A stretch of 61,853 nucleotides of DNA from Bacteroidales bacterium (GCA_021163295.1 JAGGXD010000142.1:1-61853), one strand, 5' to 3'. Counted from the first letter of the stretch, positions 11,216 through 60,158 are shown. Program-made: numbers and translations. The notes: a model not told the origin generated them from the sequence alone.

Positions 11216-11244
11216 AACAGCATAAATAAAACTATTTAAAACCC

Positions 11245-12366: not shown

Positions 12367-12368
12367 TT

Positions 12369-12396
12369 CAATCCTCAGTCCACAGTCTACAGTCAG
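12369..12396 (+). repeat. 4 x heptad array (CAATCCT CAGTCCA CAGTCTA CAGTCAG)
   Basis: Read directly. It begins 2 nt after the stop of the 11245..12366 gene. Confidence 0.9.
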
Positions 12397-12474
12397 CAAA
12401 AATGCAAAGTATATTTTTAACTTTATTCATTCTCCTCATCACTTCTTCTCCTCATTTCCCAATACACTGAATAG

Positions 12475-39092: not shown

Positions 39093-39243
39093 AGCAAAAA
39101 AGCAATAGCATAAACATTATATCATTCACGCATTTAATCATTTTTGCATTCCAAACTTCAAACTCTGAAGAGCTACCAATCAATAAATTATTATCTTGCA
39201 GAACCTATTTATTTTTGTTTTACATTTTAATACTATCAGGACT

Positions 39244-39654
39244 ATGAAACGATTTACCATCTCATTTCTTACTCTTTTCTTATTATGGACCCTTCAGCCC
39301 GGGTTGCTTCATGCCAAAGATCCTATGAAAACTTATGTAGGCACATGGGAATTCACAGCTGAACAAGCTCCATTTGGATACCAGGCAGGAACTATGACCT
39401 TTGAAATTAAGGAGAATAAACTAACAGGTTATCTTAAGTTTTCAGAAACCGAATATGTTATTAATTTTCAGAATATTGAAATTAATGACGGGGGTATAAC
39501 ACTTGAGATAACTGTTGAATATGAACAGGTTCCGATAAGAGGATCGGTTAAAGATAATGTATTTACAGGTACTGCAGCTTCCCCTGAGGGACCAGTTAGT
39601 TTTTCAGCAACCAGGGTAGTATTAAGTAAAAAGTCAAAAGTCAAAAGTGAATAA
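39244..39654 (+). CDS. Small exported hypothetical protein
   Basis: The ORF track starts at 39196. The internal Met at 39244 gives a clean signal peptide (MKRFTISFLTLFLLWTLQPGLLHA). Confidence 0.5.
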   Translation: MKRFTISFLTLFLLWTLQPGLLHAKDPMKTYVGTWEFTAEQAPFGYQAGTMTFEIKENKLTGYLKFSETEYVINFQNIEINDGGITLEITVEYEQVPIRGSVKDNVFTGTAASPEGPVSFSATRVVLSKKSKVKSE

Positions 39655-39769: not shown

Positions 39770-40405
39770 TTACTTTTCCGCTTTATTTTTCTTTTTTACA
39801 TAAAAAGCTACTTTCTCAACAGAGGTTATCATATCATGTTCTTCAAGATAAACACCAGGCGGAACATTGAGTGGTACGGTTGTGAAATTTAGAATACCTT
39901 TTATTCCTGCTTCCACAAGTTTGTTTGTTACATCCTGGGCTACATTTGGCGGGACTGTTAATATGGCAATTGATATTTTTTTATTTTTTGTGATTGTTTT
40001 TAAATGGTTAAAATGAAAACATTTCACCCCTTTCACTTTTGCACCAACCTTTTGATGGTTGGTATCAAATGAAGCTGCAACATCCAATTTTGATCTTTTC
40101 CCTGCAAAATAACCTGTAATAGCTTTACCCAGATGACCAAATCCAACAACTGCTACTTTCTGTCCTTCCTTCGAATCCAAAACCTCTCCGATTCCGGCAA
40201 TCAGCTCTTTTACATTATAACCGTTTTTATGCATCCCTGCATATCCTATCAACATAACATCTCTTCTAACCTGAACTGCAGTAATATACAAAAGTTTAGC
40301 CAAATCGTGTGAGAAAATATGATCTCTGTTTTTTGTTAAATAGTTTAATAATACACGACGATATGCACTTAATCTTTCAATAGTTTTACCCGGCAGGTTA
40401 TTCAT
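39770..40405 (-). CDS. rex: Redox-sensing transcriptional repressor Rex (paralogue 1)
   Basis: N-terminal winged-helix segment (TIERLSAYRRVL...VQVRRDV) and Rossmann motif VVGFGHLGKA. Length is 211 aa. Confidence 0.85.
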   Translation of the reverse strand: MNNLPGKTIERLSAYRRVLLNYLTKNRDHIFSHDLAKLLYITAVQVRRDVMLIGYAGMHKNGYNVKELIAGIGEVLDSKEGQKVAVVGFGHLGKAITGYFAGKRSKLDVAASFDTNHQKVGAKVKGVKCFHFNHLKTITKNKKISIAILTVPPNVAQDVTNKLVEAGIKGILNFTTVPLNVPPGVYLEEHDMITSVEKVAFYVKKKNKAEK

Positions 40406-40549
40406 AAGAAGTTATTTACAAATGCTTAAAGGTAAAATAAATATTGTTTAACCTAATGACTTTTGCCCAGGTTTCTTTTGAACAGTTAAAATGTAATAGG
40501 GACATGAGGTGATGTAGTGATGCAGTTAGGGGTTACGGGTTAAAAAAAA

Positions 40550-41023
40550 TTATTTTTTTGCATCGAGACAGGAGTTACAGCGCAATTCATCGGCTTGAAT
40601 TATTTCTGATACCTGGCATCCAACCCTGCTACAAATGCCTATGCAATTTCTAAAGTCCGCATTCTTATCTGTAAACATGGTAAATAAATAAGCACCACAG
40701 GCACATCGTCTGTAAATCGGCAATTTCACACCACATTCAGGACAAAAGAATTCCAATATTTCACCATTTTCAAGCTCAACTTCACAAGCAATCCACGATT
40801 TGTCACCACAGAAAGGACTCAAGGCAATGTGTCCTTCCTTATTATTACCTTTTACTTTCAGGTAGATTCCTTTTTGATTGTTAAAAATAGCACGGTTGTT
40901 AATCAAAGAATGTCCATTCTGGCAATATACTTCTTCAATAACCCAAACTTTCTTTTGCCTGACAGCAACTTTTTTATCGGGTTTTGGAAATACTAACATT
41001 CCTTTAGAATTGAACCTTCTCAT
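40550..41023 (-). CDS. Cys-rich putative metal-binding protein, hydrogenase-associated (paralogue of 51406..51810)
   Basis: 157 aa. It shares an ordered motif set with the 134-aa ORF: C-x3-H, LSPFCG, FFCPECG, CACG and ICSRVGC. It lies 43 bp downstream of the endopeptidase gene. Confidence 0.6.
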   Translation of the reverse strand: MRRFNSKGMLVFPKPDKKVAVRQKKVWVIEEVYCQNGHSLINNRAIFNNQKGIYLKVKGNNKEGHIALSPFCGDKSWIACEVELENGEILEFFCPECGVKLPIYRRCACGAYLFTMFTDKNADFRNCIGICSRVGCQVSEIIQADELRCNSCLDAKK

Positions 41024-41066
41024 GCAAAATATCTGTTTTATAAAAATTAATCAATTGTTCTCAAAT

Positions 41067-41552
41067 CTACGAATTTTTTTCAGCAAATACCAGCTTCTTT
41101 ATTTCATTATATATATAATCTATCCTCTTTTCCAGATTATCTGAAAAGCATTCACCAAAACATCTGTCCTCTTCCACTTCTATTCCGACAATCTCAATAA
41201 TATGAGGTAACTTGTATCCCACATACTCTCCAACCTTCAATGCATTTAGAAAAGAAGCATCATGTTTTGTTGACAGATGAAGTGTTTCCAGAAAATTTTC
41301 AGGAGAGAAAAAATGCAAATCACCAACATTACGCCCCCCCCTCATGCCATCGAGTATGATCAATCGATCATAGTCCTTAATAATTTCAAGTAATTCTAAT
41401 CCGCCAATATTGGATGTTTCAACATGAAACCCAGGTGGCAGGTTTTCTTCTCTGAGTTTGTTAGCCAGTCGGGACCCCACACCATCATCCATCAGTATTT
41501 CACTTCCCATACCTAATACCAGCAATTTTTTATTGCAATTTTCACTTATCAT
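41067..41552 (-). CDS. [NiFe]-hydrogenase maturation endopeptidase
   Basis: LLVLGMGSEILMDDGVG N-terminal motif, 161 aa, directly downstream of the large subunit. Confidence 0.8.
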   Translation of the reverse strand: MISENCNKKLLVLGMGSEILMDDGVGSRLANKLREENLPPGFHVETSNIGGLELLEIIKDYDRLIILDGMRGGRNVGDLHFFSPENFLETLHLSTKHDASFLNALKVGEYVGYKLPHIIEIVGIEVEEDRCFGECFSDNLEKRIDYIYNEIKKLVFAEKNS

Positions 41553-41573
41553 TTCTGCCGGTTATCAACTTGC

Positions 41574-43037
41574 TCAGTCTCTTTTTACAGTTCTTATAAT
41601 TTTCCCGTCTTTATCCCTGAAATTAACCTGTAACGGCATTTCTCCGGGCAATCGGTGAGTAGCACATGAAAAGCAGGGGTCGTATGCTCTGAAAGCCATT
41701 TCAATCATATTCAATATCCCGTCAGAAACATCAACTCCTTTTTTTATCAGTCCCTGGGCAGCTTTTTTCAAAGACATACAGATAGCTGCATTATTATTTG
41801 TAGTACCAACAATGATATTGGCTTTTTTCACTATTCCTTTATTGTCTGTCCAGTAATGGTGTGTAAGTGTCCCTCTCTGTGCCTCAACAATACCAACACC
41901 TTCATCGGGTATATTTGTCAGAGGGGTTCTTAATTCAGACCCTGTAATATCAGGATCAGAAGCAAGTTCAACAAGTCTTTCAGAGCTGTAAAGAAGCTCT
42001 ATCAAACGGGCCCAGTGCATAGCCAGAGTAGCATGAACCGGCTTACCACCAAGGATCTCATACATTTTCTCATATTCAACCTGTGCAAGAGGAGTAGCCA
42101 TTCCATCAGCAGCATTAAGTCTTGAAAGCGGTGTGGCATGGTAAACTCCTGAATCCTGACCATCAACAAATCCTTTCCATCCAATTTTTTTCAGGTATGG
42201 AAACTTAAGATAACTCCATGTCTCGACTCTTTCTTCAACAAAATCTCTATAATCTTCAGCAGCATATTTACAATGCTCTTTACCAACAGTATCAACAACC
42301 CTTACTTTTCCTTCATAAAAATTGACTTTATTATTTTCATCAACCAAACCCATTGAGTGAAGAGTCAGTGAATAGGGACCATTTAAAATAAGGTCAACAT
42401 AGTCCTTATTCTGAAGAACAACATCATTAAACAGCTTAAGTGAAAATTTCGAGAATTCAACAAACCCCTCTCCCTTTTTTAATACATCATCCCGCTCTTC
42501 CTTAGTAAGACCTTTTCTAACCCCTCCGGGAATATTCATTACAACATGTGTTTGATGACCTCCTAACAGAGCCTGTATCTCCTGGGCAATTCTCCTCTGT
42601 TTCAGAACTTCCGTCCCGATCTCCACTCCAACTTTTTCTATCACACCAAGAATATTTCGTTTAGCAGGATCCGCATCAGGACCAACCACAAAGTCAGGTG
42701 CAGCAAGAGCATAAAAATGGGCAATATGGCTATGTACAAAATGTGCCATATAGAAAAGCTCCCTGAGTTTCTTTGCAGTTGGTGGAGGCTCAACGTCATA
42801 GACAGCATCAGCCGCTTTTCCTGCAGCCATATGATGGCATCCGGGGCATACACCACAAATTTTTGTAACAATCTGCGATAATTCTTCCACCGGGCGTCCT
42901 TCACAAAACTTTTCAAATCCTCTTAGCTCGGGCACCTGAAAATAAACATTCTCAACTTCTCCTGAATCTTTCAGGAATATTTCAATCTTCCCATGTCCTT
43001 CAAGACGTGTTATGGGATCTATTGTTATTTGTTTCAT
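41574..43037 (-). CDS. mvhA: [NiFe]-hydrogenase large subunit, Mvh/group-3c-like by context
   Basis: RLEGHGKIEI, KICGVCPGCHH (N-terminal Ni-ligand motif) and DPCFSCATH plus a cleavable tail. Its neighbours are mvhG, mvhD and hdrA. Confidence 0.9.
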   Translation of the reverse strand: MKQITIDPITRLEGHGKIEIFLKDSGEVENVYFQVPELRGFEKFCEGRPVEELSQIVTKICGVCPGCHHMAAGKAADAVYDVEPPPTAKKLRELFYMAHFVHSHIAHFYALAAPDFVVGPDADPAKRNILGVIEKVGVEIGTEVLKQRRIAQEIQALLGGHQTHVVMNIPGGVRKGLTKEERDDVLKKGEGFVEFSKFSLKLFNDVVLQNKDYVDLILNGPYSLTLHSMGLVDENNKVNFYEGKVRVVDTVGKEHCKYAAEDYRDFVEERVETWSYLKFPYLKKIGWKGFVDGQDSGVYHATPLSRLNAADGMATPLAQVEYEKMYEILGGKPVHATLAMHWARLIELLYSSERLVELASDPDITGSELRTPLTNIPDEGVGIVEAQRGTLTHHYWTDNKGIVKKANIIVGTTNNNAAICMSLKKAAQGLIKKGVDVSDGILNMIEMAFRAYDPCFSCATHRLPGEMPLQVNFRDKDGKIIRTVKRD

Positions 43038-43052
43038 TTGTATAAAATAAAA

Positions 43053-44024
43053 TTAAACTATTGTTTTTCGAATAATTGAAGACGGCAAGCTGAAACGATA
43101 GAAAGTACCGGCAGGATCTACTACCTGATCAATAATTTTCTCAATCTCTTCAGGATCATCCGAATCGATCATAGTAGCAATAGCTGACATCATCTTTGCC
43201 CCCGGGTCAGTAGCAGTTGAAGGTGGTCCGTAACATCCCCTGCACGGTGCATTCCCTTTAATACATCTGGCACCGCAGCCTCCACGAGTTGCCGGACCCA
43301 TACAAATTACTCCCTGCTCCAGGAAACATGTTTTCCCATCATCCTCAATCTCCCATGGTCTTTTAAACTCCTTAATTACTTTTTCATCTGTTTTTTCTCT
43401 TTCACACTCATCACACAATGTTTTTTCGAGTGCACCAACTACTGAGCCTTTTGGTGGTAACTCTGCCCCGGTAACAATAGCCATAAACACCTCCACAAGT
43501 CTTTCTGTCTGAGGCGGACATCCCGGTAAATAATAATCAACGTCAACAACCTGATCAAGCGTTTTTACATCATTATAGAATTCGGGCAGTGTCAAAGTTC
43601 CCTCAGGCATTTTAGTTTCAGTTTGCGGTCTGGTTTTTTCCTCATTAACTGTTGATTCACTTGTTTGATAAGCTCTGTCGAAAATACCTTTTCTGTCAGA
43701 GAAGTTTCCCAAACCGGGAATCCCTCCCATATGCGCACATGAGCCATACGCAACTAATATCTTGGTTTTTTTTCTTAGAAGTTTGGCAATATGTTCATTC
43801 TCACTGTTCCTGATTGCACCATTATACAGGGTAAGATCAATGTAATCGTCATCCATTGCTTCCACATCTTTATATTTAAAATCCAAAGCAATGGGCCAGA
43901 ATACCAGATCGGCAGCAGCAACTACATCTAATAATTTTTCGTGTACATCAAGAACTGACACACAGCATCCGCCACAGGCAGCTCCCCAGTAAACGGCCAT
44001 TTTGATTTTTGGTTTTTGTGACAT
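43053..44024 (-). CDS. mvhG: [NiFe]-hydrogenase small subunit (MvhG-like)
   Basis: YWGAACGGCCVS proximal-cluster motif, GSCAHMGGIPG, and a Cys-rich C-terminus. Confidence 0.85.
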   Translation of the reverse strand: MSQKPKIKMAVYWGAACGGCCVSVLDVHEKLLDVVAAADLVFWPIALDFKYKDVEAMDDDYIDLTLYNGAIRNSENEHIAKLLRKKTKILVAYGSCAHMGGIPGLGNFSDRKGIFDRAYQTSESTVNEEKTRPQTETKMPEGTLTLPEFYNDVKTLDQVVDVDYYLPGCPPQTERLVEVFMAIVTGAELPPKGSVVGALEKTLCDECEREKTDEKVIKEFKRPWEIEDDGKTCFLEQGVICMGPATRGGCGARCIKGNAPCRGCYGPPSTATDPGAKMMSAIATMIDSDDPEEIEKIIDQVVDPAGTFYRFSLPSSIIRKTIV

Positions 44025-44038
44025 AACAATATTTCTTT

Positions 44039-44464
44039 TTAGTCAAATATTTCCATTTCCTCTTTCACCTTGCATGGACCCAGGCTCTTAATTGTTTCAG
44101 CCATTTCATCCGCCAGCTGGGCAAACTCTTTACCTTCGCTGGCACTTATCCATGCAAGTTTAAGCCTGTCAGGATTAAGTCCCATCTGGGCCATATACTT
44201 TTTCAGGAAATGATACCTCCTGAGGCATTTATAATTTCCTTCGTGATAATGACAATCGCCGGGGTGGCAACCACAGATCAATACTCCATCTGCCCCTTCC
44301 CGAAATGATTTCAGAACAAAAGTAGGATCCACCCTACCGGAGCACATAACCCGGACAACACGTATGTTAGACGCATATTTCATTCTGGATGTACCTGCAA
44401 GGTCAGCCCCTGTATATGAACACCAGTTACATAAAAATGATACGATTTTTGGTTCAAATTCCAT
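44039..44464 (-). CDS. mvhD: MvhD-like hydrogenase iron-sulfur subunit
   Basis: 141 aa. FLCNWCSY...VMCSGRVD...ICGCHPGDCHY is the MvhD/FlpD signature. Confidence 0.85.
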   Translation of the reverse strand: MEFEPKIVSFLCNWCSYTGADLAGTSRMKYASNIRVVRVMCSGRVDPTFVLKSFREGADGVLICGCHPGDCHYHEGNYKCLRRYHFLKKYMAQMGLNPDRLKLAWISASEGKEFAQLADEMAETIKSLGPCKVKEEMEIFD

Positions 44465-44466
44465 AA

Positions 44467-46197
44467 TTATACCTCCTGCATTTCCTTTGAAAATAGACCT
44501 TCAATTTGTGATAATATTTGTTCGTCGGTAAAATGACGAGCTCTGATTGCTCCTGTAGGACAAGCAGAACCACATGTTCCGCATCCCTTACATAAAATTT
44601 CATTTACAACCGAAACATTTTTCTCCTCATCAAAACTAATTGCAGTGTAAGGACAAACCTTAATACAGGTTTGACAACCACAACAAACATCTTCATTTAC
44701 CACCGCGGTAGTAACCTCAACTTCAACTGTCCCACGGGCTATTGATGCTAATATTCTGGCTGCTGCTGCTTTTGCCTGGGAAACCGAATCGGGAATATCC
44801 TTTGGACCCTGGCAAGTCCCTGCTATATACACTCCATCAGTGGTAGTAGCAACCGGATCCAGCTTCGGATGCCTTTCAATATAGAATTCGTTACCGCAAA
44901 GACTTATTCCAACAGCATGAGCAACTTCCTTAGCTTCTTCATGAGCCTCCATTGCAACCATCAGGACAACCATATCAGCCGGAACAATGATATCTTCACC
45001 TGATAATTTTTCATAAAATTCAATACCCATTTCATATCCGGCATCTTCTTCTGCTTTGCTTATCCTTGGTAAATCACCCTGCTGATCGTACATCAGGAAC
45101 ATAACATCTTTCTTCGATGTTGATGCATAAAACTCTTCGCATCCCTTTCCAAATGCACGCATATCAGCATAAATCTGGAATAAGTTTGTTTCAGGCAGGG
45201 CTGACCGGAGTTGATTTGAAAATTTTAATGCGCTAAGGCAGCAAACCCTTGAGCAATATTCATGATAATCTGCATTTCTACTTCCAACACAATGAATAAT
45301 GGCAATCTTTTTGGGCTCACTTCCATCTTTCTTAACCACATTGCCCTCCTTCAACATCTTTTCAAGCTCAAGAGAGGTTATAACATCAGGTAGTTTTTCA
45401 TAATTATATGAACTGATCTTTCCGGGATCAAAGGGAGTTAAACCTGTTGCAACAATTATATTTCCAAACTTCAACTCATATTCTTTACCCCCGGATTTAA
45501 TTGTTGATTCAAAATTCCCCACATAACCAAACACCTCATCGATTGTTGTATTCAGGTAAACCTCCACTTCAGGATGGTTATTCACTTTATATATCAAAGG
45601 CTCAAGCACTTCAGCAGCACTGTTTAGCCCCGGGAATGTAAGGTCAATATTAGCGACATGGCCTCCAAGGTTTCCTGTTTTCTCAACCAGGTAAACTTTA
45701 TTACCTGCATCCGCCAGTTCCAGGGCTGCTGATAATCCGGTAACTCCTCCGCCGATCACCATGGTCGCAGGATTAATGTCCACCGACCTTTTATCAAGAG
45801 CTTCATGGAAATTCACCCTGTTTACCGCCCCTTTTACCAGGTCCAGTGCCTTAATAGTAGCCTCTTCACGATTGTCGTGTACCCATGAAACCTGTTCCCT
45901 GATATTCGCCATCTCGAACATATACTGGTTTAAACCGGCATTTTCAAGAGCTTTGCGGAAAGTTAGTTCATGAATTCGAGGTGAACAAGCCGATACAACA
46001 ACCCTGTTCAATTTATGCTCTTTAATATCCTTAACGATCATTTCCTGACCGGGATCAGAGCACATATACTTATAGTCTTTTGCGATAACAACATTTGGGA
46101 GTTTGGCAATTTTTGCTGCAACTGCCTCAACATCTACCATTTTAGCTATGTTGGTACCACACCAGCAGACATATACACCTATTCTTTTTTCTTCCAT
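44467..46197 (-). CDS. hdrA: HdrA-like FAD/FeS oxidoreductase (paralogue 2, Cys-containing N-domain)
   Basis: N-domain Cys residues (VCWCG..C..C), GGGVTGLSAALELADAG, HCVGSRN..CSRVCC, and a C-terminal 2x CxxCxxCxxxCP. Confidence 0.85.
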   Translation of the reverse strand: MEEKRIGVYVCWCGTNIAKMVDVEAVAAKIAKLPNVVIAKDYKYMCSDPGQEMIVKDIKEHKLNRVVVSACSPRIHELTFRKALENAGLNQYMFEMANIREQVSWVHDNREEATIKALDLVKGAVNRVNFHEALDKRSVDINPATMVIGGGVTGLSAALELADAGNKVYLVEKTGNLGGHVANIDLTFPGLNSAAEVLEPLIYKVNNHPEVEVYLNTTIDEVFGYVGNFESTIKSGGKEYELKFGNIIVATGLTPFDPGKISSYNYEKLPDVITSLELEKMLKEGNVVKKDGSEPKKIAIIHCVGSRNADYHEYCSRVCCLSALKFSNQLRSALPETNLFQIYADMRAFGKGCEEFYASTSKKDVMFLMYDQQGDLPRISKAEEDAGYEMGIEFYEKLSGEDIIVPADMVVLMVAMEAHEEAKEVAHAVGISLCGNEFYIERHPKLDPVATTTDGVYIAGTCQGPKDIPDSVSQAKAAAARILASIARGTVEVEVTTAVVNEDVCCGCQTCIKVCPYTAISFDEEKNVSVVNEILCKGCGTCGSACPTGAIRARHFTDEQILSQIEGLFSKEMQEV

Positions 46198-46224
46198 TGT
46201 TTGCTGCTTTAAAATTTTATTTTT

Positions 46225-47289
46225 TTAACTGTTAAGTTCAGCACTTTTAATATTTGCAAAATATACTGCAAACGAGCGATAAAGAAAATGTGTCCACTTT
46301 CCAAATGGAACAATTAATATACCCCATTGAGCAATAACAATTAAGTGTACTATATATAACCACAAATTATTACTGATAAGATCTGTGTCAATGAGAATTC
46401 GTACAATAAATGCGGTAAATCCCATCAGGAAAAGCCAGATAACAAATAACCAATCACTCGGGTGAGAAAATTTACTTAGTTCTTTTTTCTTTTTGACACG
46501 TTCAAGTATAAAATCAAACGTGATAATAAACACCAATCCGCCAACAATATATCCGAACCAGATAATATAGGTGTTTTCAGTTGAAAACCAATTGAGAAAA
46601 ACTGTCGTGATAAGCAAGAGAATATAGCCAAACACAACCAGTAAATGCTCAAACCAACGGAATGTATTCTTTTCACATTTCAAGGATTTTTTTTGAGTAA
46701 ACATATGAAGGAACAGATCCCAAATTCCTTTGACGTATAATAAGAAAGGCGCTTTTATTTTTTCTTTTATTATTGTTAACCAAAACATATGAAAGATATT
46801 TGGTATTAAGATTAAAACAACAACAGAAAAAATCAACATTTTTTCGAAAACATGTCCGAATTCCATTATTGACTCGAGATTGAATTGTTTTGCATAACCA
46901 ACACCAATAATTGAAACAGCCACTAATACAAAAGCAATTATCAATGCCGGAACAGATTTAAAGAAAAGACCGGAAAGACCTGTCCAGTCATAAACCGAGG
47001 TCAGATACCTGCGGGCAGACATCATCATCTCACCAGGGTTAGCATCTCTCGGGCAGGTTTCTGAACAGTCGCCACAATAATAGCACAACCATGGATCGAT
47101 ATTACTATTAAATTTATCTTTCAGACCCATTTGTAACTGGCGGATTACTTTCCGCGGGAACAGATTTTCATTTTCGGTAAGAGAGCAAACAGCAGTGCAA
47201 TTCCCACAATGGTAACACTCGTTCCATTCACTCTTATTACCAAATTTTACAAGTTTTGCATTCAGATCCGGATTAACAACGGTACTCAT
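46225..47289 (-). CDS. Fusion of an HdrC-like 2x[4Fe-4S] domain with a polytopic NarI/HdrE-like membrane domain (QmoC-like)
   Basis: CYHCGNCTAVC and CYYCGDCSETCP lie in the first ~80 aa. About 6 hydrophobic helices follow, with intramembrane His residues, and the protein ends in PFGKWTHFLYR. Confidence 0.7.
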   Translation of the reverse strand: MSTVVNPDLNAKLVKFGNKSEWNECYHCGNCTAVCSLTENENLFPRKVIRQLQMGLKDKFNSNIDPWLCYYCGDCSETCPRDANPGEMMMSARRYLTSVYDWTGLSGLFFKSVPALIIAFVLVAVSIIGVGYAKQFNLESIMEFGHVFEKMLIFSVVVLILIPNIFHMFWLTIIKEKIKAPFLLYVKGIWDLFLHMFTQKKSLKCEKNTFRWFEHLLVVFGYILLLITTVFLNWFSTENTYIIWFGYIVGGLVFIITFDFILERVKKKKELSKFSHPSDWLFVIWLFLMGFTAFIVRILIDTDLISNNLWLYIVHLIVIAQWGILIVPFGKWTHFLYRSFAVYFANIKSAELNS

Positions 47290-47291
47290 AA

Positions 47292-49082
47292 TTATTCCTC
47301 CGTACTTATAAGTTCATTAACTTTTGTTTCTATATCATTGTAAGAAAGATCGCTCAGACCTTTTTTTACTTTGCTGTTTATGACACTCTGTATCACCCGT
47401 GCTGCAGCAGCAGAACCCTGGGCAACTGAATCCGGAATATCTTTTGGCCCCTGACATACACCGGCGACAAATATCCCTCCCCTTACAGTGTTAACCGTTT
47501 GGTTTGTTGAATTTAATTCAGCGAACCATCCTATATCATCAGTTAGAATGTTAAGAGATTTAGCAAGTTTTTGCGAATCCTCACCGGGTTCCAGTCCAAC
47601 TGAAAGCACAACCATATCAACTTCTTTTTCGATCAGTTTCATGCCTTCAATATCCTCAGACCGCAGTACCAGATTGCCATTTTTTTCCTCAACCTTGGCG
47701 GTACGTCCTCTGATAATATCTATCCCTTCCTTCTTAATTCTTTCATAGAATTCCTCGTATCCCTTTCCAAATGACCGCATATCTATGTAATACTCACTAA
47801 CATCAGCATCAGGTAATTTTTCTTTAACAAGATGTGCCATTTTCAAAGAATACATACAACATACACGTGAACAATGAGTATTGTAGTTTTCATCACGGCT
47901 ACCGACACAATGAATAAGGGCAATTCTTTCCGGACTATCGCTATTAGCTTCGAATATCCCATTTCCCTTCTTATCCTTGCTCCTGAATACTATGCTTCCT
48001 CCGGTAGGACCCGCAGCGTTAAGCAAGCGTTCAAACTCAAGAGAAGTAAGCACATTAGGGTATTTTCCATAACCAAACCTTTCAACTTTTTCAGCATCAA
48101 AAGTCTTGAATCCGGTCGCAACAACAATATTACCCACTTTAATCTCAATGGTTTCATCTTTATCATCCAGATAAATACATTCAACCGGGCATACTTTTGC
48201 ACAAACACCACATTTACCTTTTTGCACATATGTACAATTGTCTCCATCAAGAATATATTTATTCGGCACAGCCTGTGGGAAAGGAATATATATTGCTTTC
48301 CGCATAGTAGTCCCCGCATCAAATTCACTTGGAACATTAACAGGACATTTTTCTGTACAATCGCCACAACCGATACAGGTAGCCAGATCAACCCGCCTGG
48401 TTTTTTTAAATACTTTTACAGTATAATCGCCAGCCTCCCCCGAGACATCAAGAACCTCACTGTATGTAAGCAACTCAATGTTTTGATGTTGGCCGACCTC
48501 TACCATTTTTGGGGTCAGAATACAAGCTGCACAATCAAGTGTCGGGAATGTTTTATCAAACATCGCCATGTGACCACCAATAGTACCTGTCTTTTCAATA
48601 AGAGTTACGTCTATGCCCGCATTTGCAATTTCAAGCGAAGCCTGAATACCGGCAATACCAGCTCCAATTACAAGAGTTTTTTTATTCACCTCATTCCCTG
48701 GAGAATCTGAAGCCAACTCAAAATGCACATCCTTCACAGCACAAAGTATTTTTGCTTTAAAGACAGATAACAAATCTCCATCGCTCAAAATTGTACCGTT
48801 TACCGACACCAGGGTAAGATCTTCCGGGTTTTTTCCTGCATCAGCCAAAGAAGCAGATACAAAAGATTTTAATTCTCCCGGACTTCTCCCGGCAACAATT
48901 ATTTTTTCCACCCCGTTTTCTTTAATCCTGGTTGAAAGACTTTTTTTGTCTTTCATTGAAAAGTCTGTGGCAAACCAGACCTCTTTTACTTCAGGAAATT
49001 CACCGGCAAACTGTTCAAGTTTTTCAAGACCGGAATTCATTCTTTCCTGAAAAATAACTGCCCTGGAATTTTGTTTTACCAT
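47292..49082 (-). CDS. HdrA-like FAD/FeS oxidoreductase (paralogue 1, Cys-less N-domain, inserted ferredoxin domain)
   Basis: VIGAGIAGIQASLEIANAG, inserted CIGCGDCTEKCP...CGVCAKVCP, and HCVGSRD..CSRVCC. Confidence 0.8.
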   Translation of the reverse strand: MVKQNSRAVIFQERMNSGLEKLEQFAGEFPEVKEVWFATDFSMKDKKSLSTRIKENGVEKIIVAGRSPGELKSFVSASLADAGKNPEDLTLVSVNGTILSDGDLLSVFKAKILCAVKDVHFELASDSPGNEVNKKTLVIGAGIAGIQASLEIANAGIDVTLIEKTGTIGGHMAMFDKTFPTLDCAACILTPKMVEVGQHQNIELLTYSEVLDVSGEAGDYTVKVFKKTRRVDLATCIGCGDCTEKCPVNVPSEFDAGTTMRKAIYIPFPQAVPNKYILDGDNCTYVQKGKCGVCAKVCPVECIYLDDKDETIEIKVGNIVVATGFKTFDAEKVERFGYGKYPNVLTSLEFERLLNAAGPTGGSIVFRSKDKKGNGIFEANSDSPERIALIHCVGSRDENYNTHCSRVCCMYSLKMAHLVKEKLPDADVSEYYIDMRSFGKGYEEFYERIKKEGIDIIRGRTAKVEEKNGNLVLRSEDIEGMKLIEKEVDMVVLSVGLEPGEDSQKLAKSLNILTDDIGWFAELNSTNQTVNTVRGGIFVAGVCQGPKDIPDSVAQGSAAAARVIQSVINSKVKKGLSDLSYNDIETKVNELISTEE

Positions 49083-49311
49083 TATATAAATTCAGTTAAG
49101 TATAATAAGCAACATTATGATATATTAATCACAATAAAAGTATATTATATTATATTTATTAGCAACACTTAGCATGCAAATATGATGTATAACATATTCC
49201 GGTTATTTGCTGCCGTATTCTATTTTATTGATTTTCTTTCTTTTATACCTTATTTTTATTCTTTAAAAATAGAGTGGTTTCATTTGGCAAGATTATTTTT
49301 TTTTTGTTATT

Positions 49312-49329
49312 TTGTGAATAATGTAACAT
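49312..49329. promoter_or_regulatory. Weak Rex-box-like site just upstream of rex paralogue 2
   Basis: TTGTGAA-TAAT-GTAACAT. The left half-site is perfect and the right half-site has 3 mismatches to TTCACAA. It ends 3 nt before the ATG at 49333. Confidence 0.25.
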
Positions 49330-49332
49330 GTA

Positions 49333-49956
49333 ATGTATTTACGAAGTAATATTACACGGCTTTTACAATACCGTAGTTGCCTGACAAAGTTCCAGGAACT
49401 GGGATTTGAAACTATCTATTCATATAATCTCGGAATGCATATAGGTGTTAGTGCAGAGCAAATCAGGAAAGATTTTTCAAAATTTAATATACGAGGAAAT
49501 AAAAAAGCTGGCTATAATATTGAAAAATTAATTACCGCCATAAATAAAATTTTTAATAAAACTTCGCCTCAAAACATATTACTTATAGGATATGGTAATT
49601 TAGGACAGTCTCTAATAAAATACAAGGGTTTCTCAAGGAGCATGTTTTATATTAAAGCTATTATTGACATTGATCCGTCAAAACATAAAAGGAAAACTAC
49701 AGTTCCTGTTTTTCCCCCCGAGAAAGCCCCGGAGATTATTAAGAAAAACGGAATTAAAATCGGAATTATCGCAGTCCCTGATATTGCAGCACAGGAAATA
49801 TGTAATATGATTGTTAAAGCAGGGATCAAAGGGATACTGAATTTCAGCAGCCTTGTATTAAAAGCTCCTGAAGATGTTCAAATTAACAATATTAATCTCG
49901 GGAATGAACTGGAGGCTATTTTTTATCACATACAATTGAAAAAGAAAAATATCTGA
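49333..49956 (+). CDS. rex: Redox-sensing transcriptional repressor Rex (paralogue 2)
   Basis: ITRLLQYRSCL...AEQIRKDFS wHTH segment and LLIGYGNLGQSL Rossmann motif. It is divergent from the hdrA/mvh string. Confidence 0.85.
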   Translation: MYLRSNITRLLQYRSCLTKFQELGFETIYSYNLGMHIGVSAEQIRKDFSKFNIRGNKKAGYNIEKLITAINKIFNKTSPQNILLIGYGNLGQSLIKYKGFSRSMFYIKAIIDIDPSKHKRKTTVPVFPPEKAPEIIKKNGIKIGIIAVPDIAAQEICNMIVKAGIKGILNFSSLVLKAPEDVQINNINLGNELEAIFYHIQLKKKNI

Positions 49957-49960
49957 CCTG

Positions 49961-50746
49961 TCAGTCTCTCTCCTGAAGCCACCGGTTCCACTGCTCCATT
50001 CCCTCTTCTGTTTTTGCTGAAAGTTCAAAAAATTTCAGATCGGGATTCACCTGGCAGGCATACTCCTTGAATTTTTCAACATCAAAATCAACATACGGCA
50101 ACAGATCTGTTTTATTAATTACACAGATATCTGATGACTGAAACATATCGGGATACTTAATAGGTTTGTCCTCTCCTTCAGTAACGCTAACAATCACAAC
50201 CCTCTGAGATTCACCAAGGTCAAACATGGCAGGACACACCAGATTTCCAACGTTCTCTATCAGAAGAATAGAATTATCTTTTACCTCAAGGGACTTTACC
50301 GCTTTGTTTATCATATCGGCATCAAGATGACAACCAGCCCCGGTATTAATCTGTATAACAGGAGCTCCGGCCTTTTCGATACGATTAGCATCAAGCATGG
50401 TTTGCTGATCACCCTCAATTATATAGAAAGAACATTTATCTTTCAATATCCTGATAGTTTTCTCAAGAAGACTGGTCTTGCCGGAACCTGGAGAACTAAC
50501 CAGGTTCACAGCAAAAATTTTTTTTGCTTCGAAATATCCCCTGTTCCGCTCAGCCAGCAGATCATTCTTCTGAAGAATATTCTGTTCAATAACAATTTCA
50601 CGACTCCCGGAATGATCATGGTCATGATCTCCATGTGTATGGCTATGGGTTACTCCCCCATGGGAATGAGTATGTTCTTTATTTTCACCTGGTTTTCTAA
50701 AAGTAACATTTTCTCCTGGTTGTCCGCATCCGCAATTATCACACAT
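49961..50746 (-). CDS. hypB: Hydrogenase nickel-incorporation GTPase HypB
   Basis: N-terminal MCDNCGCG Ni site, His-rich tract HTHSHGGVTHSHTHGDHDHDH, and P-loop SSPGSGKTSLL. Confidence 0.9.
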   Translation of the reverse strand: MCDNCGCGQPGENVTFRKPGENKEHTHSHGGVTHSHTHGDHDHDHSGSREIVIEQNILQKNDLLAERNRGYFEAKKIFAVNLVSSPGSGKTSLLEKTIRILKDKCSFYIIEGDQQTMLDANRIEKAGAPVIQINTGAGCHLDADMINKAVKSLEVKDNSILLIENVGNLVCPAMFDLGESQRVVIVSVTEGEDKPIKYPDMFQSSDICVINKTDLLPYVDFDVEKFKEYACQVNPDLKFFELSAKTEEGMEQWNRWLQERD

Positions 50747-50847: not shown

Positions 50848-51189
50848 TTATTCGATTGTAATTGATTTCAGTTGTATCTCTTTCCCCTGAAGAATTTCTT
50901 TACCAAACTCTCTACATTTTGGGCATGGAGAAAAATAATCATCCACACTATAAATATGACCACATCTCCTGCACTTAGCTTTAGCCTCTATTTTATTTAT
51001 CTTCCATACTGCTTTTGAGCAAACGGAATCTTTCACTGCTTCTTCAAGAGCAAACTCAAGTGCATCAATTACTACTCCTGATAAGGTCCCTACATCTATT
51101 TCAAATATATCCACATTAAGTGCCTTTTCCTTCTCAGCATTGTCCTCTATCATTTCTACTATATTAACCGCTATCGATAATTCATGCAT
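50848..51189 (-). CDS. hypA: Hydrogenase nickel metallochaperone HypA
   Basis: MHELSIA N-terminus and zinc motifs CRRCGH / CPKC. Length is 113 aa. Confidence 0.9.
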   Translation of the reverse strand: MHELSIAVNIVEMIEDNAEKEKALNVDIFEIDVGTLSGVVIDALEFALEEAVKDSVCSKAVWKINKIEAKAKCRRCGHIYSVDDYFSPCPKCREFGKEILQGKEIQLKSITIE

Positions 51190-51405: not shown

Positions 51406-51810
51406 ATGAAAAATCTAATTGCACTCAGAACTAAATGTCCTTACTGCAAGAAGTCTTTTATGGATCCATACGATCAGATCAATGGCAAACCCAGCATCAA
51501 GGTAGATATTGAAGCAAATGGCAAAAAAGGAAGGTTCAGATTATGTTCATATTATGGCTGTTTTGACCATAAAAGCAGCATTGAACTCCCAAAAGACGAG
51601 CCAATTAAGTTTTTTTGTCCGCACTGTAACAAGGAACTTACAAGTTCTAATAAATGCGAAGAATGCGGTTCTCCTATGATCCCGTTTGCACTGGAAAAAG
51701 GCGGGAAAGTTCATATCTGTTCAAAGGTTGGATGCAACAAACACTTTATTTCCTTCCAGGATGTTTCAGATGCATTGCGCAAAATGTATAATGAATTTGG
51801 TTACTTCTAA
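51406..51810 (+). CDS. Cys-rich putative metal-binding protein, hydrogenase-associated (paralogue of 40550..41023)
   Basis: 134 aa with five Cys pairs (CPYC, CSYYGC, FFCPHC, CEECG, ICSKVGC) colinear with the 157-aa ORF. GGAGGT lies at 51397-51402, just before the ATG. Confidence 0.6.
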   Translation: MKNLIALRTKCPYCKKSFMDPYDQINGKPSIKVDIEANGKKGRFRLCSYYGCFDHKSSIELPKDEPIKFFCPHCNKELTSSNKCEECGSPMIPFALEKGGKVHICSKVGCNKHFISFQDVSDALRKMYNEFGYF

Positions 51811-51939: not shown

Positions 51940-52965
51940 CTAACAAATCCTTGGAAGCTGCTCTCCCGTCAGCATATCAACTATCCTGGTGCCTCCAATA
52001 GCTGTTTTCAGTATTACCTTGCCCGGGTGTTTTTCAGTTATTTCCCCGATAACAGAAGCTTTCTTACCGAAAGTGTTATGCTGCAATTTATCAAGTACCT
52101 TATCCACATCCAATGAGTCGATTACCATAATTACTTTCCCCTCATTTGCCATATAAAGAGGGTCATATCCGAAAATCTCACAAGCACTTTGCACACTGCT
52201 TAACACCGGTATATTCTCTTCGTCAGCCTCAATACCAAACCCCCTTGTTTCAGAGAGTTCGCACAAAACCGTTGCAAGTCCGCCCCTTGTAGCATCACGC
52301 ATAAAATGTATACCGGATGAGATACTCAGAACTGATTGTATCATTTTGTTAAGAGAGGCACAATCAGATTTCAGACTCACACTAAAACTCATATTTTCGC
52401 GTGCAGAAAGAATAGCGACACCATGATCTCCAACACTACCATTAACAATTATTTTATCACCGGGTTTTATTTTCTGCCCGGTGCTTATTGAATGGTTTTT
52501 CCGGGGCAAATAGCCCACGCCGGCAGTATTAATAAATAGTTTATCACATTTTCCCTTATTAACAACCTTGGTATCACCTGTCACAATTTGCACTCCTGCT
52601 TTACGTGATTCTTCAGCCATGGTACTGACTATTTTTTCAAGATCCGTTATGGAAAAGCCTTCTTCAATAATAAATGAGGCACTCAGATATTGTGGCTTTG
52701 CTCCGGACACAGCCAGATCATTAACAGTACCACATACTGCAAGTTTCCCTATATTTCCACCGGGGAAAAATATTGGATCTACCACATATGAATCTGTAGT
52801 AAAAGCAATCCCTTCATCTGCTCCGGGAATACATGCAGAATCAGTTTGTTCGGATAATATTTTATTTGAAAAATACTTTACAAAAATATCGCTGATAAGG
52901 TCATGGGACAGTTTTCCACCACTGCCATGTCCCAGCAATATAACTTTTTCAGAATTCTTGTTCAT
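51940..52965 (-). CDS. hypE: Hydrogenase maturation protein HypE
   Basis: AIR-synthase-like fold and the canonical C-terminal PRIC. Length is 341 aa. Confidence 0.9.
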   Translation of the reverse strand: MNKNSEKVILLGHGSGGKLSHDLISDIFVKYFSNKILSEQTDSACIPGADEGIAFTTDSYVVDPIFFPGGNIGKLAVCGTVNDLAVSGAKPQYLSASFIIEEGFSITDLEKIVSTMAEESRKAGVQIVTGDTKVVNKGKCDKLFINTAGVGYLPRKNHSISTGQKIKPGDKIIVNGSVGDHGVAILSARENMSFSVSLKSDCASLNKMIQSVLSISSGIHFMRDATRGGLATVLCELSETRGFGIEADEENIPVLSSVQSACEIFGYDPLYMANEGKVIMVIDSLDVDKVLDKLQHNTFGKKASVIGEITEKHPGKVILKTAIGGTRIVDMLTGEQLPRIC

Positions 52966-53106: not shown

Positions 53107-54186
53107 CTACTTGTTATATCTGTAATAAGCATGACATGCTCCTTCATTGGAAACCATACATGCCCCAACCGGGTTTGCAGGTGAGCACACTTTATTGAAC
53201 AATTTACAATCAGAAGGTTTCTTAATACCTTTCAGTACTTCACCGCAAATACAACCTCCGGGTTCAATTGTTTCTTCAACTTCAACACTCAGCATTTTTT
53301 CTGCATCAAACCGTTCATACTTTTCTTTCAGAGCAAACCCGCTGTTTTTTAAAACCCCCAACCCTCTCCACCAATCATCATGAAGCTCAAAAACCTTATT
53401 CATCATCTCCTGAGCTTTTACATTTCCTTCAGGAATAACAACTCTTTTATACTGAATTTCCACTTTTGGTGAATCGGTTTCATATTGTCTGACAAGCATA
53501 TAAATAGATTGTAATATATCAATCGGTTCAAATCCACTGATAACACAACCCAGACCAAATCTTTCAGGGATAGCTTTGTATATACCTGAGCCTGTAATGG
53601 TACTAACATGACCTGGAGCGATATAACCATTCATATCTACTCCCTCGTCAATCAGGGCTTCCATTGCAGGAGGCATGATCTTATGCGAGCTGTACAGATA
53701 GAAATTTTCCATATTCTCAGCATCTGCATTTAATATGGCTGCGGCACTGGTTGGAGCGGTTGTTTCAAACCCAATGCCAAGGAAAATCACTTTTTTATCC
53801 GGATTTTTTCTGGCAATATTCAAAGCATCCAGAATTGAATATACCATCCGGATATCTCTTCCATTTGCTTTCTCCCTGTCAAGAGATGATGTAGATCCAG
53901 GAATCCTTATCAGGTCACCAAATGAAGTGATTATAACATTTTCTAAACGACTATACGCCACAGCTTTATCAATAAACAAGTTGGTTGTAACACAAACCGG
54001 GCAACCAGGCCCGGAAAGAAGTTCTATATTATCCGGGAGAAGTGATGGAATACCAAATTTCTGAATTGCCATAGTATGGCCACCACACACCTCCATAAAC
54101 CTGACATGTTTTTTAGATATGGATGTGATATAATCCACAAGCCGGGATACAATTTCTTTGTTCCGGAATTCTGTTATATATTTCAT
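53107..54186 (-). CDS. hypD: Hydrogenase maturation protein HypD
   Basis: MEVCGGHT, GPGCPVCVT and a C-terminal Cys cluster. Confidence 0.9.
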   Translation of the reverse strand: MKYITEFRNKEIVSRLVDYITSISKKHVRFMEVCGGHTMAIQKFGIPSLLPDNIELLSGPGCPVCVTTNLFIDKAVAYSRLENVIITSFGDLIRIPGSTSSLDREKANGRDIRMVYSILDALNIARKNPDKKVIFLGIGFETTAPTSAAAILNADAENMENFYLYSSHKIMPPAMEALIDEGVDMNGYIAPGHVSTITGSGIYKAIPERFGLGCVISGFEPIDILQSIYMLVRQYETDSPKVEIQYKRVVIPEGNVKAQEMMNKVFELHDDWWRGLGVLKNSGFALKEKYERFDAEKMLSVEVEETIEPGGCICGEVLKGIKKPSDCKLFNKVCSPANPVGACMVSNEGACHAYYRYNK

Positions 54187-54437
54187 ACTTTCCTGCCCTG
54201 CTCTTCCCGGTCCATTTCCCTATTTAACTCTTCCAATTCCTCAAACAATGCAAGAGTTTCAGCTGCATCAGCGGGACTGATCTTCTGTAATGCAAATCCG
54301 GTATGAAGCAGAACATAATCACCAATCTCAACATCATCAAGCATTTGAAGACTGGCATTTACAATTGTTTCGCCAACAGCGACCCTGGCCATTTCTCCAT
54401 TAATTTCAACAATTTTTGCCGGCACACTTAAACACAT
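54183..54437 (-). CDS. hypC: Hydrogenase maturation protein HypC
   Basis: MCLSVPAKIVEI N-terminus, 84 aa. It overlaps hypF and hypD. Confidence 0.9.
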   Translation of the reverse strand: MCLSVPAKIVEINGEMARVAVGETIVNASLQMLDDVEIGDYVLLHTGFALQKISPADAAETLALFEELEELNREMDREEQGRKV

Positions 54438-56991: not shown

Positions 56992-57009
56992 CTGTTAATT
57001 TTTTCACAA
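56992..57009. promoter_or_regulatory. Candidate Rex operator upstream of hoxF
   Basis: CTGTTAA-TTTT-TTCACAA has 2 mismatches to the TTGTGAA-N4-TTCACAA consensus. It ends 33 nt upstream of the hoxF ATG. Confidence 0.5.
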
Positions 57010-58845: not shown

Positions 58846-58865
58846 TAAATAAACAATCTAAAATA

Positions 58866-59561
58866 ATGGCTGATATAATCAACTTTACCATTGACGGAAA
58901 AGAATGCATGGCTGAAAAAGGCATTTTTATCTTACAAGCTGCAAAAGAAAATGATATTTACATTCCCTCTTTATGTAATTACGAAGGTGTAAAACCCCAG
59001 GGATCGTGCCGGATTTGTTCAATCAAAACCAATGGACAATTTGTTACCGCATGTACCACACCGGTAGCAGATGGAATGGAAATTGAAAATAATACAGACG
59101 AAATAAACGATATGAGGAAATCAATCATTGAGTTGCTTTTCGTTGAAGGAAACCATTTCTGCCCTGCTTGTGAAATGAGTGGTGACTGCGAACTTCAGGC
59201 TCTTGCATACAGGTTTCAAATGATGGTTCCCCGATTTATTTATCAATTTCCGTTAAGGGAAATTGATGCCCGTCATCCAAAAATACTCAAAGACCAGAAC
59301 AGATGTATAAGATGTAAAAGATGTATCCGTACAATAAAAGATGAAAAAGGGAGGAGTGTCTTTGCATTTTACGGAAGAGGTAAAAATATTGAAGTAAATG
59401 TTGATCCCGTATTGGGAAGCAAACTAACAGACAAACTGGCTGCAAAAGCTATCGAAGTTTGCCCTGTAGGATCCATACTTCCACGCGAAAAAGGTTTCAG
59501 AACACCAATTGGACAAAGAAAATTCGACCATGAACCAATCGGAAGTGAATATAAACATTAG
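58866..59561 (+). CDS. hoxU: Diaphorase FeS subunit HoxU (NuoG N-terminal-like)
   Basis: [2Fe-2S] motif C..GSCRICS...C, then HFCPACEMSGDCELQ and CIRCKRCIR...CPVG. Confidence 0.85.
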   Translation: MADIINFTIDGKECMAEKGIFILQAAKENDIYIPSLCNYEGVKPQGSCRICSIKTNGQFVTACTTPVADGMEIENNTDEINDMRKSIIELLFVEGNHFCPACEMSGDCELQALAYRFQMMVPRFIYQFPLREIDARHPKILKDQNRCIRCKRCIRTIKDEKGRSVFAFYGRGKNIEVNVDPVLGSKLTDKLAAKAIEVCPVGSILPREKGFRTPIGQRKFDHEPIGSEYKH

Positions 59562-59588
59562 GAAACTCAATTTTAAATAACATTTGTT

Positions 59589-60140: not shown

Positions 60141-60158
60141 TTTAAGAGAAAAAAGATT

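Follow-up and report, generated by a model that had tools for sequence, protein, structure and literature searches.

What do two small cysteine-rich proteins do among the hydrogenase genes of a Bacteroidales bacterium? The window, by which we mean the whole stretch of DNA analysed here (61,853 nucleotides, GCA_021163295.1 JAGGXD010000142.1:1-61853), encodes one such protein of 157 amino acids (aa), CysA (40550-41023, minus strand, ATG start), and another of 134 aa, CysB (51406-51810, plus strand, ATG start). The original prediction, made from the sequence alone, regarded the two as co-linear paralogues without a known family, carrying zinc-ribbon or iron-sulfur (FeS) sites and possibly acting as maturation or regulatory factors for group-3 hydrogenases. 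The reading that we favour, tentatively and at somewhat under an even chance, is that both are forms of a non-catalytic, zinc-binding module that serves as an adaptor subunit or domain of soluble FeS-flavoprotein and hydrogenase complexes, with one paralogue for each group-3 hydrogenase of this genome.

Pairwise alignment, shared invariant cysteines, profile comparison and substitution rates make it clear that CysA and CysB are genuine genes, kept by purifying selection, and true paralogues of each other. Both open reading frames lie exactly where they had been placed, and BLASTP of the pair gives a co-linear alignment with 28% identity over 105 aa (E 4e-10), in which, as in a joint alignment of 30 sequences from both families, all five of the originally quoted segment pairs are matched. 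The two families find each other in profile-profile comparison with 98.6% probability (E 1.1e-15), and the ratio of nonsynonymous to synonymous substitution rates (dN/dS) against close relatives is 0.21-0.23 for CysA and 0.05-0.12 for CysB. Hydrothermal vents, marine sediments and salt lakes are the sources of the sequencing runs that match this sequence, all of them DNA metagenomes; no RNA run is among them.

Seven cysteines are invariant across both families in the 30-sequence alignment (C34, C94, C97, C107, C109, C131 and C136 in CysA, corresponding to C11, C71, C74, C84, C87, C105 and C110 in CysB). To these the CysA family adds an invariant H38, and the CysB family adds C14, C47 and C52, making ten invariant cysteines altogether, and a near-invariant H113. 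The N-terminal ligand pair takes the form CxxC in CysB and C-x3-H in CysA, the central pattern common to both is CPxC-x9-CxxC (with CxC as its second half in CysA), and the C-terminal pair is C-x4-C in both; the predicted four to five Cys/His pairs are thereby four in CysA and five in CysB. The central knuckle of CysA, C94-P-E-C97 ... C107-A-C109 (40697-40744, minus strand), is made of invariant columns and forms a predicted Cys4 metal site, and an outer site is predicted to join C34/H38 to C131/C136, a pairing modelled on the nested pattern of methionyl-tRNA synthetase (MetRS). The corresponding knuckle of CysB, C71-P-H-C74-x9-C84-E-E-C87 (C-x2-C-x9-C-x2-C; 51616-51666, plus strand), is recognised both in the alignments and through a partial match to the Pfam family PF09334. 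Judged from these patterns, each module probably holds two nested Cys4/Cys3His ribbon-knuckle sites, and CysB probably a third.

The ligand layout points to nested zinc ribbons or knuckles and contains no [4Fe-4S] or [2Fe-2S] motif, such that, of the two kinds of site originally suggested, zinc ribbons fit the pattern and FeS sites appear unlikely. The ligand sets differ between the paralogues (CxxC versus CxC; Cys4 versus Cys3His), which would fit structural zinc better than a tuned redox centre, and structural zinc is most likely the metal of the module. Apart from the cysteines, the positions that are invariant or nearly so in both families are Gly, Pro and Leu only, and no catalytic-type polar residue is conserved across both in the 30-sequence alignment; because conservation is limited in this way, the module would seem to be structural rather than enzymatic.

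If iron rather than zinc occupied the Cys4 sites, the module could act as a rubredoxin-like carrier or relay, moving single electrons between the FeS chain of the enzyme and a partner. The CPxC / CxxCG knuckles resemble those of rubredoxin, some hydrogenase operons are known to include genes of the rubredoxin type, such as hoxR/hupI, and fusion of the module to the C-terminus of NuoE, described below, places it near the C1 [2Fe-2S] cluster. However, no rubredoxin family is matched (a rubrerythrin-like domain scores 11.2 against a cut-off of 32 bits), the replaced ligands of CysA (Cys3His; CxC) would be unusual for a redox-tuned Fe(Cys)4 site, and rubredoxin potentials are far too positive to replace ferredoxin in bifurcating enzymes. 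CysA and CysB are like the rubredoxin-type HoxR and HupI in being small Cys4-type metal proteins encoded in hydrogenase clusters, and unlike them in having two to three sites and, in CysA, a ligand set that is not conserved as Cys4. On balance we regard a relay as improbable.

AlphaFold 2 (AF2) models of both proteins are all-beta with a confident core (mean predicted local distance difference test score, pLDDT, 80 for CysA and 82 for CysB), and the CysB model carries a C-terminal helix. Each protein also has a conserved terminal segment that is modelled at low confidence. In CysA this is the N-terminal peptide M-x-R-F-N-x-K-G-M-x-x-I-P, which precedes the all-beta zinc-ribbon module and in which F4, G8 and P13 are invariant in the CysA-family alignment; in CysB it is the C-terminal helix and tail, ...SDALRKMYNEFGYF, in which F117, Y128 and E130 are invariant and G132 and F134 nearly so. 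Because they are conserved yet modelled at low confidence, the CysA N-terminus and the CysB tail look like candidate partner-docking motifs.

The suggestion that the family lacked a known assignment was borne out by Pfam and structure searches on both proteins. No curated library (Pfam, 2025; NCBIfam, 2026) or PDB entry describes it. A Foldseek search of the CysB model against the PDB gave nothing significant, the best matches being the C-terminal zinc ribbons of TopoI (E 0.05, template-modelling score 0.28), and the CysA model gave no match; comparison of both family profiles with PDB sequences returned zinc-finger matches at chance level only and no solved structure. The literature searched held nothing relevant on a zinc-ribbon protein in hydrogenase or NuoE contexts. 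The zinc ribbon or knuckle is a familiar building block, and the module as a family is new to Pfam, NCBIfam, the PDB and the searched literature.

The names that databases give to family members are wrong or generic. CysB exceeds a Pfam cut-off only with PF09334, the MetRS family (24 bits, cut-off 20.1), and it is this partial match that explains the labels "class I tRNA ligase family protein" and "methionyl-tRNA synthetase". CysB shares with the MetRS connective-peptide knuckle a C-x2-C-x9-C-x2-C nested inside an outer Cys pair; unlike MetRS, it has no catalytic Rossmann domain (HIGH/KMSKS core), and no MetRS chain in the PDB is matched by the family profiles. We rejected a tRNA ligase identity, since the 134-aa CysB matches only profile positions 109-199 of 391 and CysA has no PF09334 match at all; the resemblance is one of structural motif, with no implied shared function. 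The DUF1610 label that the Joint Genome Institute (JGI) attaches to some members was rejected as well, at 13.6 against a Pfam cut-off of 33.2 bits, and the NCBIfam models for HVO_2753 / DUF1610 score 17.4 and 15.0 against 80. Like HVO_2753 / DUF1610, the YfgJ-type PF07191 and DZR PF12773, these are small proteins made of two zinc ribbons, but the module, at about 110 aa, is extended by additional beta-sheets and finds no counterpart among PDB folds, and the small zinc-finger families all fall below their cut-offs (13.6 versus 33.2, 17.4 versus 80, 19.6 versus 25 and 24.6 versus 27.3).

CysA and CysB belong to a wider superfamily. Clustered at 50% identity, the matches of an exhaustive profile search fall into 516 clusters, and the representatives of 313 of these reach E<=1e-10. 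Eighteen of the top 150 representatives have an N-terminal extension, and in 8 of these 18 Pfam places PF01257, the thioredoxin-like [2Fe-2S] domain, ahead of the module; one further extended representative combines a receiver, the N-terminal part of PF01257 and the module, and three more resemble a PF01257-module fusion by eye. Relatives fused to PF01257 include P0136, P0175, P0143, P0159, P0188, P0163 and P0167. The module is fused most frequently, and repeatedly, to the C-terminus of [2Fe-2S] subunits of the NuoE/HoxE/HydC type, and this group of proteins (NuoE/HoxE/HydC/BfuC, found in NADH-linked hydrogenases and Bfu-family bifurcating enzymes such as HydABC, NiFe-HydABCSL and NfnABC/Stn) is both its recurrent fusion partner and its recurrent gene neighbour. 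CysA and CysB themselves lack PF01257 in Pfam searches; the HoxF of the window, like NuoE and BfuC, carries it. The fused form is abundant: the best 120 matches to P0175, a NuoE-module protein, all cover 85-97% of it, those that are named are called "NADH-quinone oxidoreductase subunit E" or a close variant apart from one "hypothetical protein", and the NuoE-module form amounts to hundreds of 90%-identity clusters under that name.

Other architectures occur as well. A CBS pair comes after the module in four representatives, about ten consist of two modules in tandem, and single representatives have a cyclase-AAA, Mur-ligase-like or PepSY-like N-terminus. P0091, P0097, P0111, P0131, P0128, P0102 and P0119/P0164 illustrate the range, which takes in a module-CBS pair, a receiver-NuoE N-terminal part-module, a double zinc ribbon-cyclase-AAA_16-module and a PgsB/Mur-ligase-like-module. 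We rejected the idea that the double-module proteins of about 280 aa are CysB-CysA fusions: it is the CysB profile that their second half resembles more closely (E 3e-21, against 1.5e-11 for the CysA profile), and for this reason we take them to be tandem duplications of the generic module.

The operons in which fused proteins occur take the family beyond hydrogenases. Three independent contigs have an operon without hydrogenase genes that opens with a NuoE-module protein and continues with a NuoF-GltD fusion of 1060-1080 aa, a HoxU-like FeS protein and a Glu_synthase-domain protein. This operon (loci L178 and L180-L182, from Planctomycetota, LCP-89) looks like an uncharacterised Bfu-type NADH-dependent glutamate-synthase-like complex, and it shares its building blocks with the Stn/NfnABC (Bfu-family) transhydrogenases; a 98-aa protein precedes it, and a sigma54 two-component system lies upstream in two of the genomes. 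Locus L170 is a split version, with separate nuoE-like, stand-alone CysB-type, nuoF-like, HoxU-like and Glu_synthase-like genes, such that the same Glu_synthase-type operon exists with the module as a separate gene (L170) and with NuoE and module fused (L178, L180 and L182). Loci L165, L167 and L173 (approximately 10000-13600) contain an Nfn-like unit with three copies of the module. In order, its genes encode a double-module protein of 286-301 aa, an FNR/PyrK-like protein (274 aa) and a GltD/NfnB-like protein of 535-608 aa, whose N-terminus supplies the third copy. Fused and stand-alone members thus occur in glutamate-synthase-type and Nfn-like operons without hydrogenase genes, and the family is not restricted to hydrogenases.

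Covalent fusion together with a split/fused pair is a classical sign of physical association, and it is on the fusions to complex subunits and on this pair that the adaptor-subunit model is built. A more far-reaching possibility, which we hold to be doubtful, is that the module is a missing, dedicated component of the flavin-based bifurcating or confurcating machinery, where it would dock or gate the low-potential electron carrier or serve as a mononuclear-metal relay of a new kind. If this were true, it would attach to complexes of the BfuC/NuoE, GltD/NfnB and Hdr/Mvh types, and the group 3c/3d hydrogenases of Bacteroidota, like many "NuoE" subunits in other phyla, would gain one functional subunit or domain over current models. 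The characterised BfuC/StnA/HydC proteins are about 16-19 kDa and have no Cys-rich extension (PMC7483475), and the zinc sites described in Bfu structures lie in BfuB (PMC9499530, PMC12018979) and are unrelated to the module.

The stand-alone genes can be followed through their loci, which we classified by tblastn with reference proteins and by unsupervised clustering of crude gene calls after searches based on separate alignments for each family; the 80 loci kept per family are closest relatives and phylogenetically non-independent. The CysB type has 351 relatives in metagenome contigs, from which 80 loci were kept, and its link to hydrogenase/hyp genes or to NuoF holds at 29 of the 32 loci flanked by 1.5 kb or more on either side and at 15 of the 16 flanked by 5 kb or more. 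Fifteen of the 32 informative loci have the arrangement HypB<HypA< CysB> <HypE or <HypF, as in the window; at 11 the gene is the first co-directional gene before HoxF-HoxU-small-large-protease, and at 3 it lies upstream of an Nfn-like pair. At the hoxF-preceding loci HoxF is, again as in the window, a fusion of the NuoE domain to NuoF, and because of this the NuoE C-terminus is not free. Long contigs that were retrieved individually agree with this census.

On many short contigs the CysB-type gene directly follows a HycI-family protease that closes a cluster of MnhE/MrpF/MnhG and a 2x[4Fe-4S] protein, and a position after the protease of a group-4 cluster was found at 11 of the 80 loci. One contig, L153 (1-15741), carries a complete group-4 Mbh/Mrp-type [NiFe] hydrogenase cluster (large subunit motifs RICGICSTSH...DPCYCCTERM), then the protease, the CysB-type gene and HoxFUYH-protease, which puts two hydrogenases in one locus with the Cys-rich gene at their junction.

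The CysA type has 184 relatives among GTDB species representatives, mainly from Bacteroidota and also from Ignavibacteria/Chlorobiota, Lentisphaerota, Aminicenantes, Marinisomatota and Desulfobacterota. At 39 of 80 loci no more than 500 bp separates the gene from a HycI-type protease (18 of 36 among loci flanked by 8 kb or more on either side), CysA sits directly behind it at 31-39 of the 80, the order MvhD-small-large-protease-CysA is fixed in the Mvh-linked loci, and the gap between protease and CysA is often only -20 to +20 nucleotides (nt), in three clades. When at least 5 kb is available on both sides, 24 of 41 CysA-type loci are hydrogenase-linked, and the remaining 17 (about 41%) are orphans. 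Among cultured carriers, Draconibacterium aestuarii Z1-6 has the Mvh-linked form of the gene (L094). One CysA-type gene stands behind a NuoE/NuoF/[FeFe]-HydA (HydABC-type) operon. At approximately 20 of the 42 Mvh-linked loci (L030, L046 and L057 among them) CysA is followed by a protein of about 560 aa (cluster c12), with an NAD-epimerase-like N-domain and a C-terminal part of about 300 aa without assignment, and by a membrane protein of about 140 aa (c14), often with rex-hoxFU after them; neither is present at this position in the window.

These counts show how far the originally proposed tie to hydrogenases holds. The link to hydrogenase and hyp genes is conserved beyond this genome, plainly for the CysB type (29 of 32 loci) and less clearly for the CysA type (24 of 41 loci, the linked members falling into about three clades), though not exclusively, given the 17 orphan CysA loci and the NuoE and GltD fusions in non-hydrogenase operons. 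Restriction to group 3 fails: one CysA-type gene occurs behind an [FeFe] HydABC-type operon, and CysB-type genes end group-4 Mbh/Mrp clusters. To that extent the outcome named in the original prediction as one that would refute it, a family living mostly away from hydrogenases, is partly borne out. Specificity for Ni-Fe maturation fails too; such maturation is not the best-supported role, and a family that partners FeS-flavoprotein complexes more broadly is more likely.

The case for a hydrogenase-specific maturation chaperone, which would work with the endopeptidase and/or HypA-HypB in Ni insertion or C-terminal processing of the large subunit, nonetheless deserves to be put in full. Both subfamilies have independently come to lie behind a HycI-family protease that closes a hydrogenase operon (31-39 of 80 loci for CysA, 11 of 80 for CysB), much as hybE/hybF lie behind the protease gene hybD in E. 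coli, and 15 of 32 informative CysB loci are embedded between hypA/B and hypE/F. There is also a weak similarity to the Zn region of HypA (E 0.0019 for CysB, 4e-4 for P0167), and HypA/HybF, too, is a small protein of hydrogenase clusters whose Zn is held structurally by CxxC...CxxC. The match is local and below threshold, at 18.6 against 28.9 bits for CysB with Pfam PF01155 and 12.6 against 88.1 with NCBIfam TIGR00100, and CysA matches neither model. The Met-His-Glu (MHE) Ni-binding N-terminus of HypA is absent (CysA starts MRRFNSKG and CysB MKNLIAL), no N-terminal His or Glu is conserved in either family alignment, and the 30-sequence alignment shows no conserved His/Asp/Glu-rich Ni site; fold length and Cys spacing differ too (x9 instead of x12-13), and a genuine hypA stands next to CysB. 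A chaperone role also fails to explain a module that is a covalent part of NuoE- and GltD-type subunits in operons without hydrogenase, the CysA-type gene behind an [FeFe] hydrogenase, which uses different maturases, and the many orphan CysA loci, and we consider it unlikely.

Two [NiFe] hydrogenases, one group 3c-like and the other 3d-like, are encoded in the window, together with a single hyp set and two Rex paralogues, and each hydrogenase system has one Cys-rich paralogue beside it; the predicted placement of CysA after the Mvh protease gene and of CysB between hypA and hypE was correct. CysA is the last gene of an Mvh/Hdr-type (group 3c-like) operon, recognised from gene calls, Pfam and synteny (41574-49082, minus strand), whose order, all on the minus strand, is an HdrA-like gene (47292-49082), a membrane 2x[4Fe-4S] protein (46225-47289), a second HdrA-like gene (44467-46197), MvhD (44039-44464), the small subunit (43053-44024) and the large subunit (41574-43037), which ends in DPCFSCATH followed by a 26-aa extension presumably removed by the protease. 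That protease, a HycI-family maturation endopeptidase by Pfam (41067-41552, minus strand), follows the large subunit and precedes CysA on the same strand with a gap of 43 nt. Downstream of CysA lies a Rex-type redox-sensing regulator with the Pfam domains Put_DNA-bind_N and CoA_binding (39770-40405, minus strand), and a second copy, 31% identical to the first, is divergent from the hdrA operon (49333-49956, plus strand).

CysB is divergent from hypB (49961-50746) and hypA (50848-51189) and convergent with hypE (51940-52965), hypD (53107-54186), hypC (54183-54437) and hypF (54428-56689), all six on the minus strand. Its strand is thus opposite to that of both flanking hyp genes, a point that the original prediction did not include and one that makes CysB a transcription unit of its own. 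Beyond hypF and divergent from it, gene calls and Pfam define a HoxFUYH (group 3d-like) operon (57043-61610, plus strand) that comprises HoxF (57043-58845), in which the NuoF core is joined to a complete NuoE-like PF01257 domain, HoxU (58866-59561), HoxY (59589-60140) and HoxH (60159-61610).

Several further features of this region are worth recording. The 354-aa protein between the HdrA-like genes (46225-47289, minus strand) combines an N-terminal 2x[4Fe-4S] domain with several predicted membrane helices and is kept at the same position in related loci (cluster c8), which suggests that the "Mvh/Hdr" complex of the window is membrane-anchored. In loci L006 and L013 the order is an aminotransferase, an ADP-forming acyl-CoA synthetase-like gene, a 151-aa secreted protein, Rex, HypB, HypA and CysB; the window has the same flanks with CysA, the protease, Mvh/Hdr and the second Rex inserted between Rex and HypB (40406-49956), suggesting that the whole 3c block and the Cys-rich gene belonging to it were gained here, or lost elsewhere, in a single piece. 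The secreted protein of the window (152 aa, 39196-39654, plus strand, between the acyl-CoA synthetase-like gene and Rex) is syntenic in all close relatives (cluster c44, the 151-aa genes of L006/L013), with no function assigned.

The Rex genes bring up the possibility that the module is a regulatory element, perhaps a Zn-thiolate redox switch or an allosteric subunit that tunes the activity or expression of NAD(P)H- or ferredoxin-linked enzymes; a nucleic-acid-binding Zn ribbon would be a less likely form of the same idea. Rex genes are frequent neighbours, CysB is a separate, divergently transcribed unit, the fusions to CBS pairs (4 representatives), to a receiver domain and to a cyclase-AAA protein all have a regulatory flavour, and orphan members suit a more general role. 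So does a pair of genes in locus L089 (8371-10483), where a CysB-type and a CysA-type gene lie 1.2 kb apart and divergent, with one T9SS-tailed (type IX secretion system) gene between them, adjoining PdxB-like and transketolase genes and without a hydrogenase gene in the surrounding 10 kb; the two types may cooperate even away from any hydrogenase locus. On the other hand, no fusion of the module to a DNA-binding domain was seen among the representatives, covalent fusion to catalytic-complex subunits would be unusual for a transcription factor, and the adjacency to Rex is explained by the neighbouring rex-hox operon. Nor are Rex boxes enriched: the operator TTGTGAAN4TTCACAA, allowing up to 3 mismatches, has 9 matches in the window against 7.9 expected. 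Two of these matches nonetheless lie where such a box would be expected, one at 49312-49329 between the divergent hdrA and rex2 genes, 3 nt ahead of the rex2 start codon (49333), and one at 56992-57009, with 2 mismatches, 33 nt before that of hoxF (57043); scans of the intergenic regions for sigma-70 promoters, terminators and inverted repeats were uninformative. Taken together, a regulatory role appears unlikely.

The orphan CysA loci raise the opposite question, namely whether there is any functional link at all or whether a generic small Zn-ribbon gene has hitch-hiked in the hydrogenase loci of one lineage. Clustering of gene calls finds no recurrent neighbours at the unlinked CysA loci, the tightly coupled ones are unrelated housekeeping genes (GNAT, SPFH, RNA methyltransferase, epimerase, GH3, MarC and TPR-kinase) without a common theme, and FtsX/CBM48 contexts also occur; in a neighbour-joining tree the Mvh-linked CysA genes fall into about three clades, with most orphans elsewhere. 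These orphans and the strong phylogenetic non-independence of the sampled loci speak for hitch-hiking, but independent associations across architectures and phyla, repeated fusions and the split/fused pair all speak against it, and we judge it very improbable.

We return, then, to the adaptor. What all linked contexts have in common is a soluble multi-subunit FeS-flavoprotein redox complex of anaerobes, whether of the NuoE/NuoF type (Hox, HydABC, glutamate-synthase-type), the GltD/NfnB type or the HdrA/Mvh type, joined in Bacteroidota by a group-4 hydrogenase. From homology, ligand pattern, gene neighbourhoods, fusions and the split/fused pair, all computed here, we infer the binding to complexes, the identity of the metal as zinc and the effect of docking. 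The module would dock on such complexes as a small adaptor or auxiliary subunit. In this genome CysA, at the end of the Mvh/Hdr-type operon, would serve that hydrogenase, and CysB would serve the NAD(H)-linked Hox enzyme of the hox-hyp supercluster around it, where its contact point would likely be the NuoE-like domain of HoxF. In other bacteria the module is a covalent extension of the C-terminus of NuoE/BfuC-type subunits, beside the [2Fe-2S] cluster and the ferredoxin-docking region of Bfu enzymes. Docking may stabilise or assemble the complex, or it may shape the access of electron carriers; either effect is plausible because a C-terminal extension of BfuC would lie near the ferredoxin-docking region.

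Several observations weigh against this model. The Mvh/Hdr operon of CysA encodes no protein of the NuoE/NuoF type, and about 41% of CysA-type loci are orphans among unrelated neighbours. A separate opposite-strand unit among hyp genes, as CysB is in the window, would be unusual for a structural subunit, and CBS pairs, a receiver domain and a cyclase are fusion partners suggestive of a regulator. Our fold and profile searches of the PDB brought up no such subunit in any solved Bfu, Hox or Hdr structure, and the census rests on the 80 closest relatives per family, which are phylogenetically non-independent.

Soluble hydrogenases linked to NAD(P)H and ferredoxin have a central place in the energy metabolism of anaerobes, as do the Bfu-type bifurcating enzymes; both are under study as H2 catalysts, and all their subunits are assumed to be known. 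Yet hundreds of proteins annotated as "NADH-quinone oxidoreductase subunit E" conceal a conserved module, some 110 residues long and with two to three predicted metal sites, and this module is also a fixed member of the hox-hyp and mvh-hdr loci of Bacteroidota. If it is a true subunit or an assembly factor, heterologous expression and structural work on these enzymes would have to include it; if it is regulatory, it would represent a new control point for the balance of H2 and NAD(P)H. Either way, the family merits a name and a model, which would correct the present mis-annotations.

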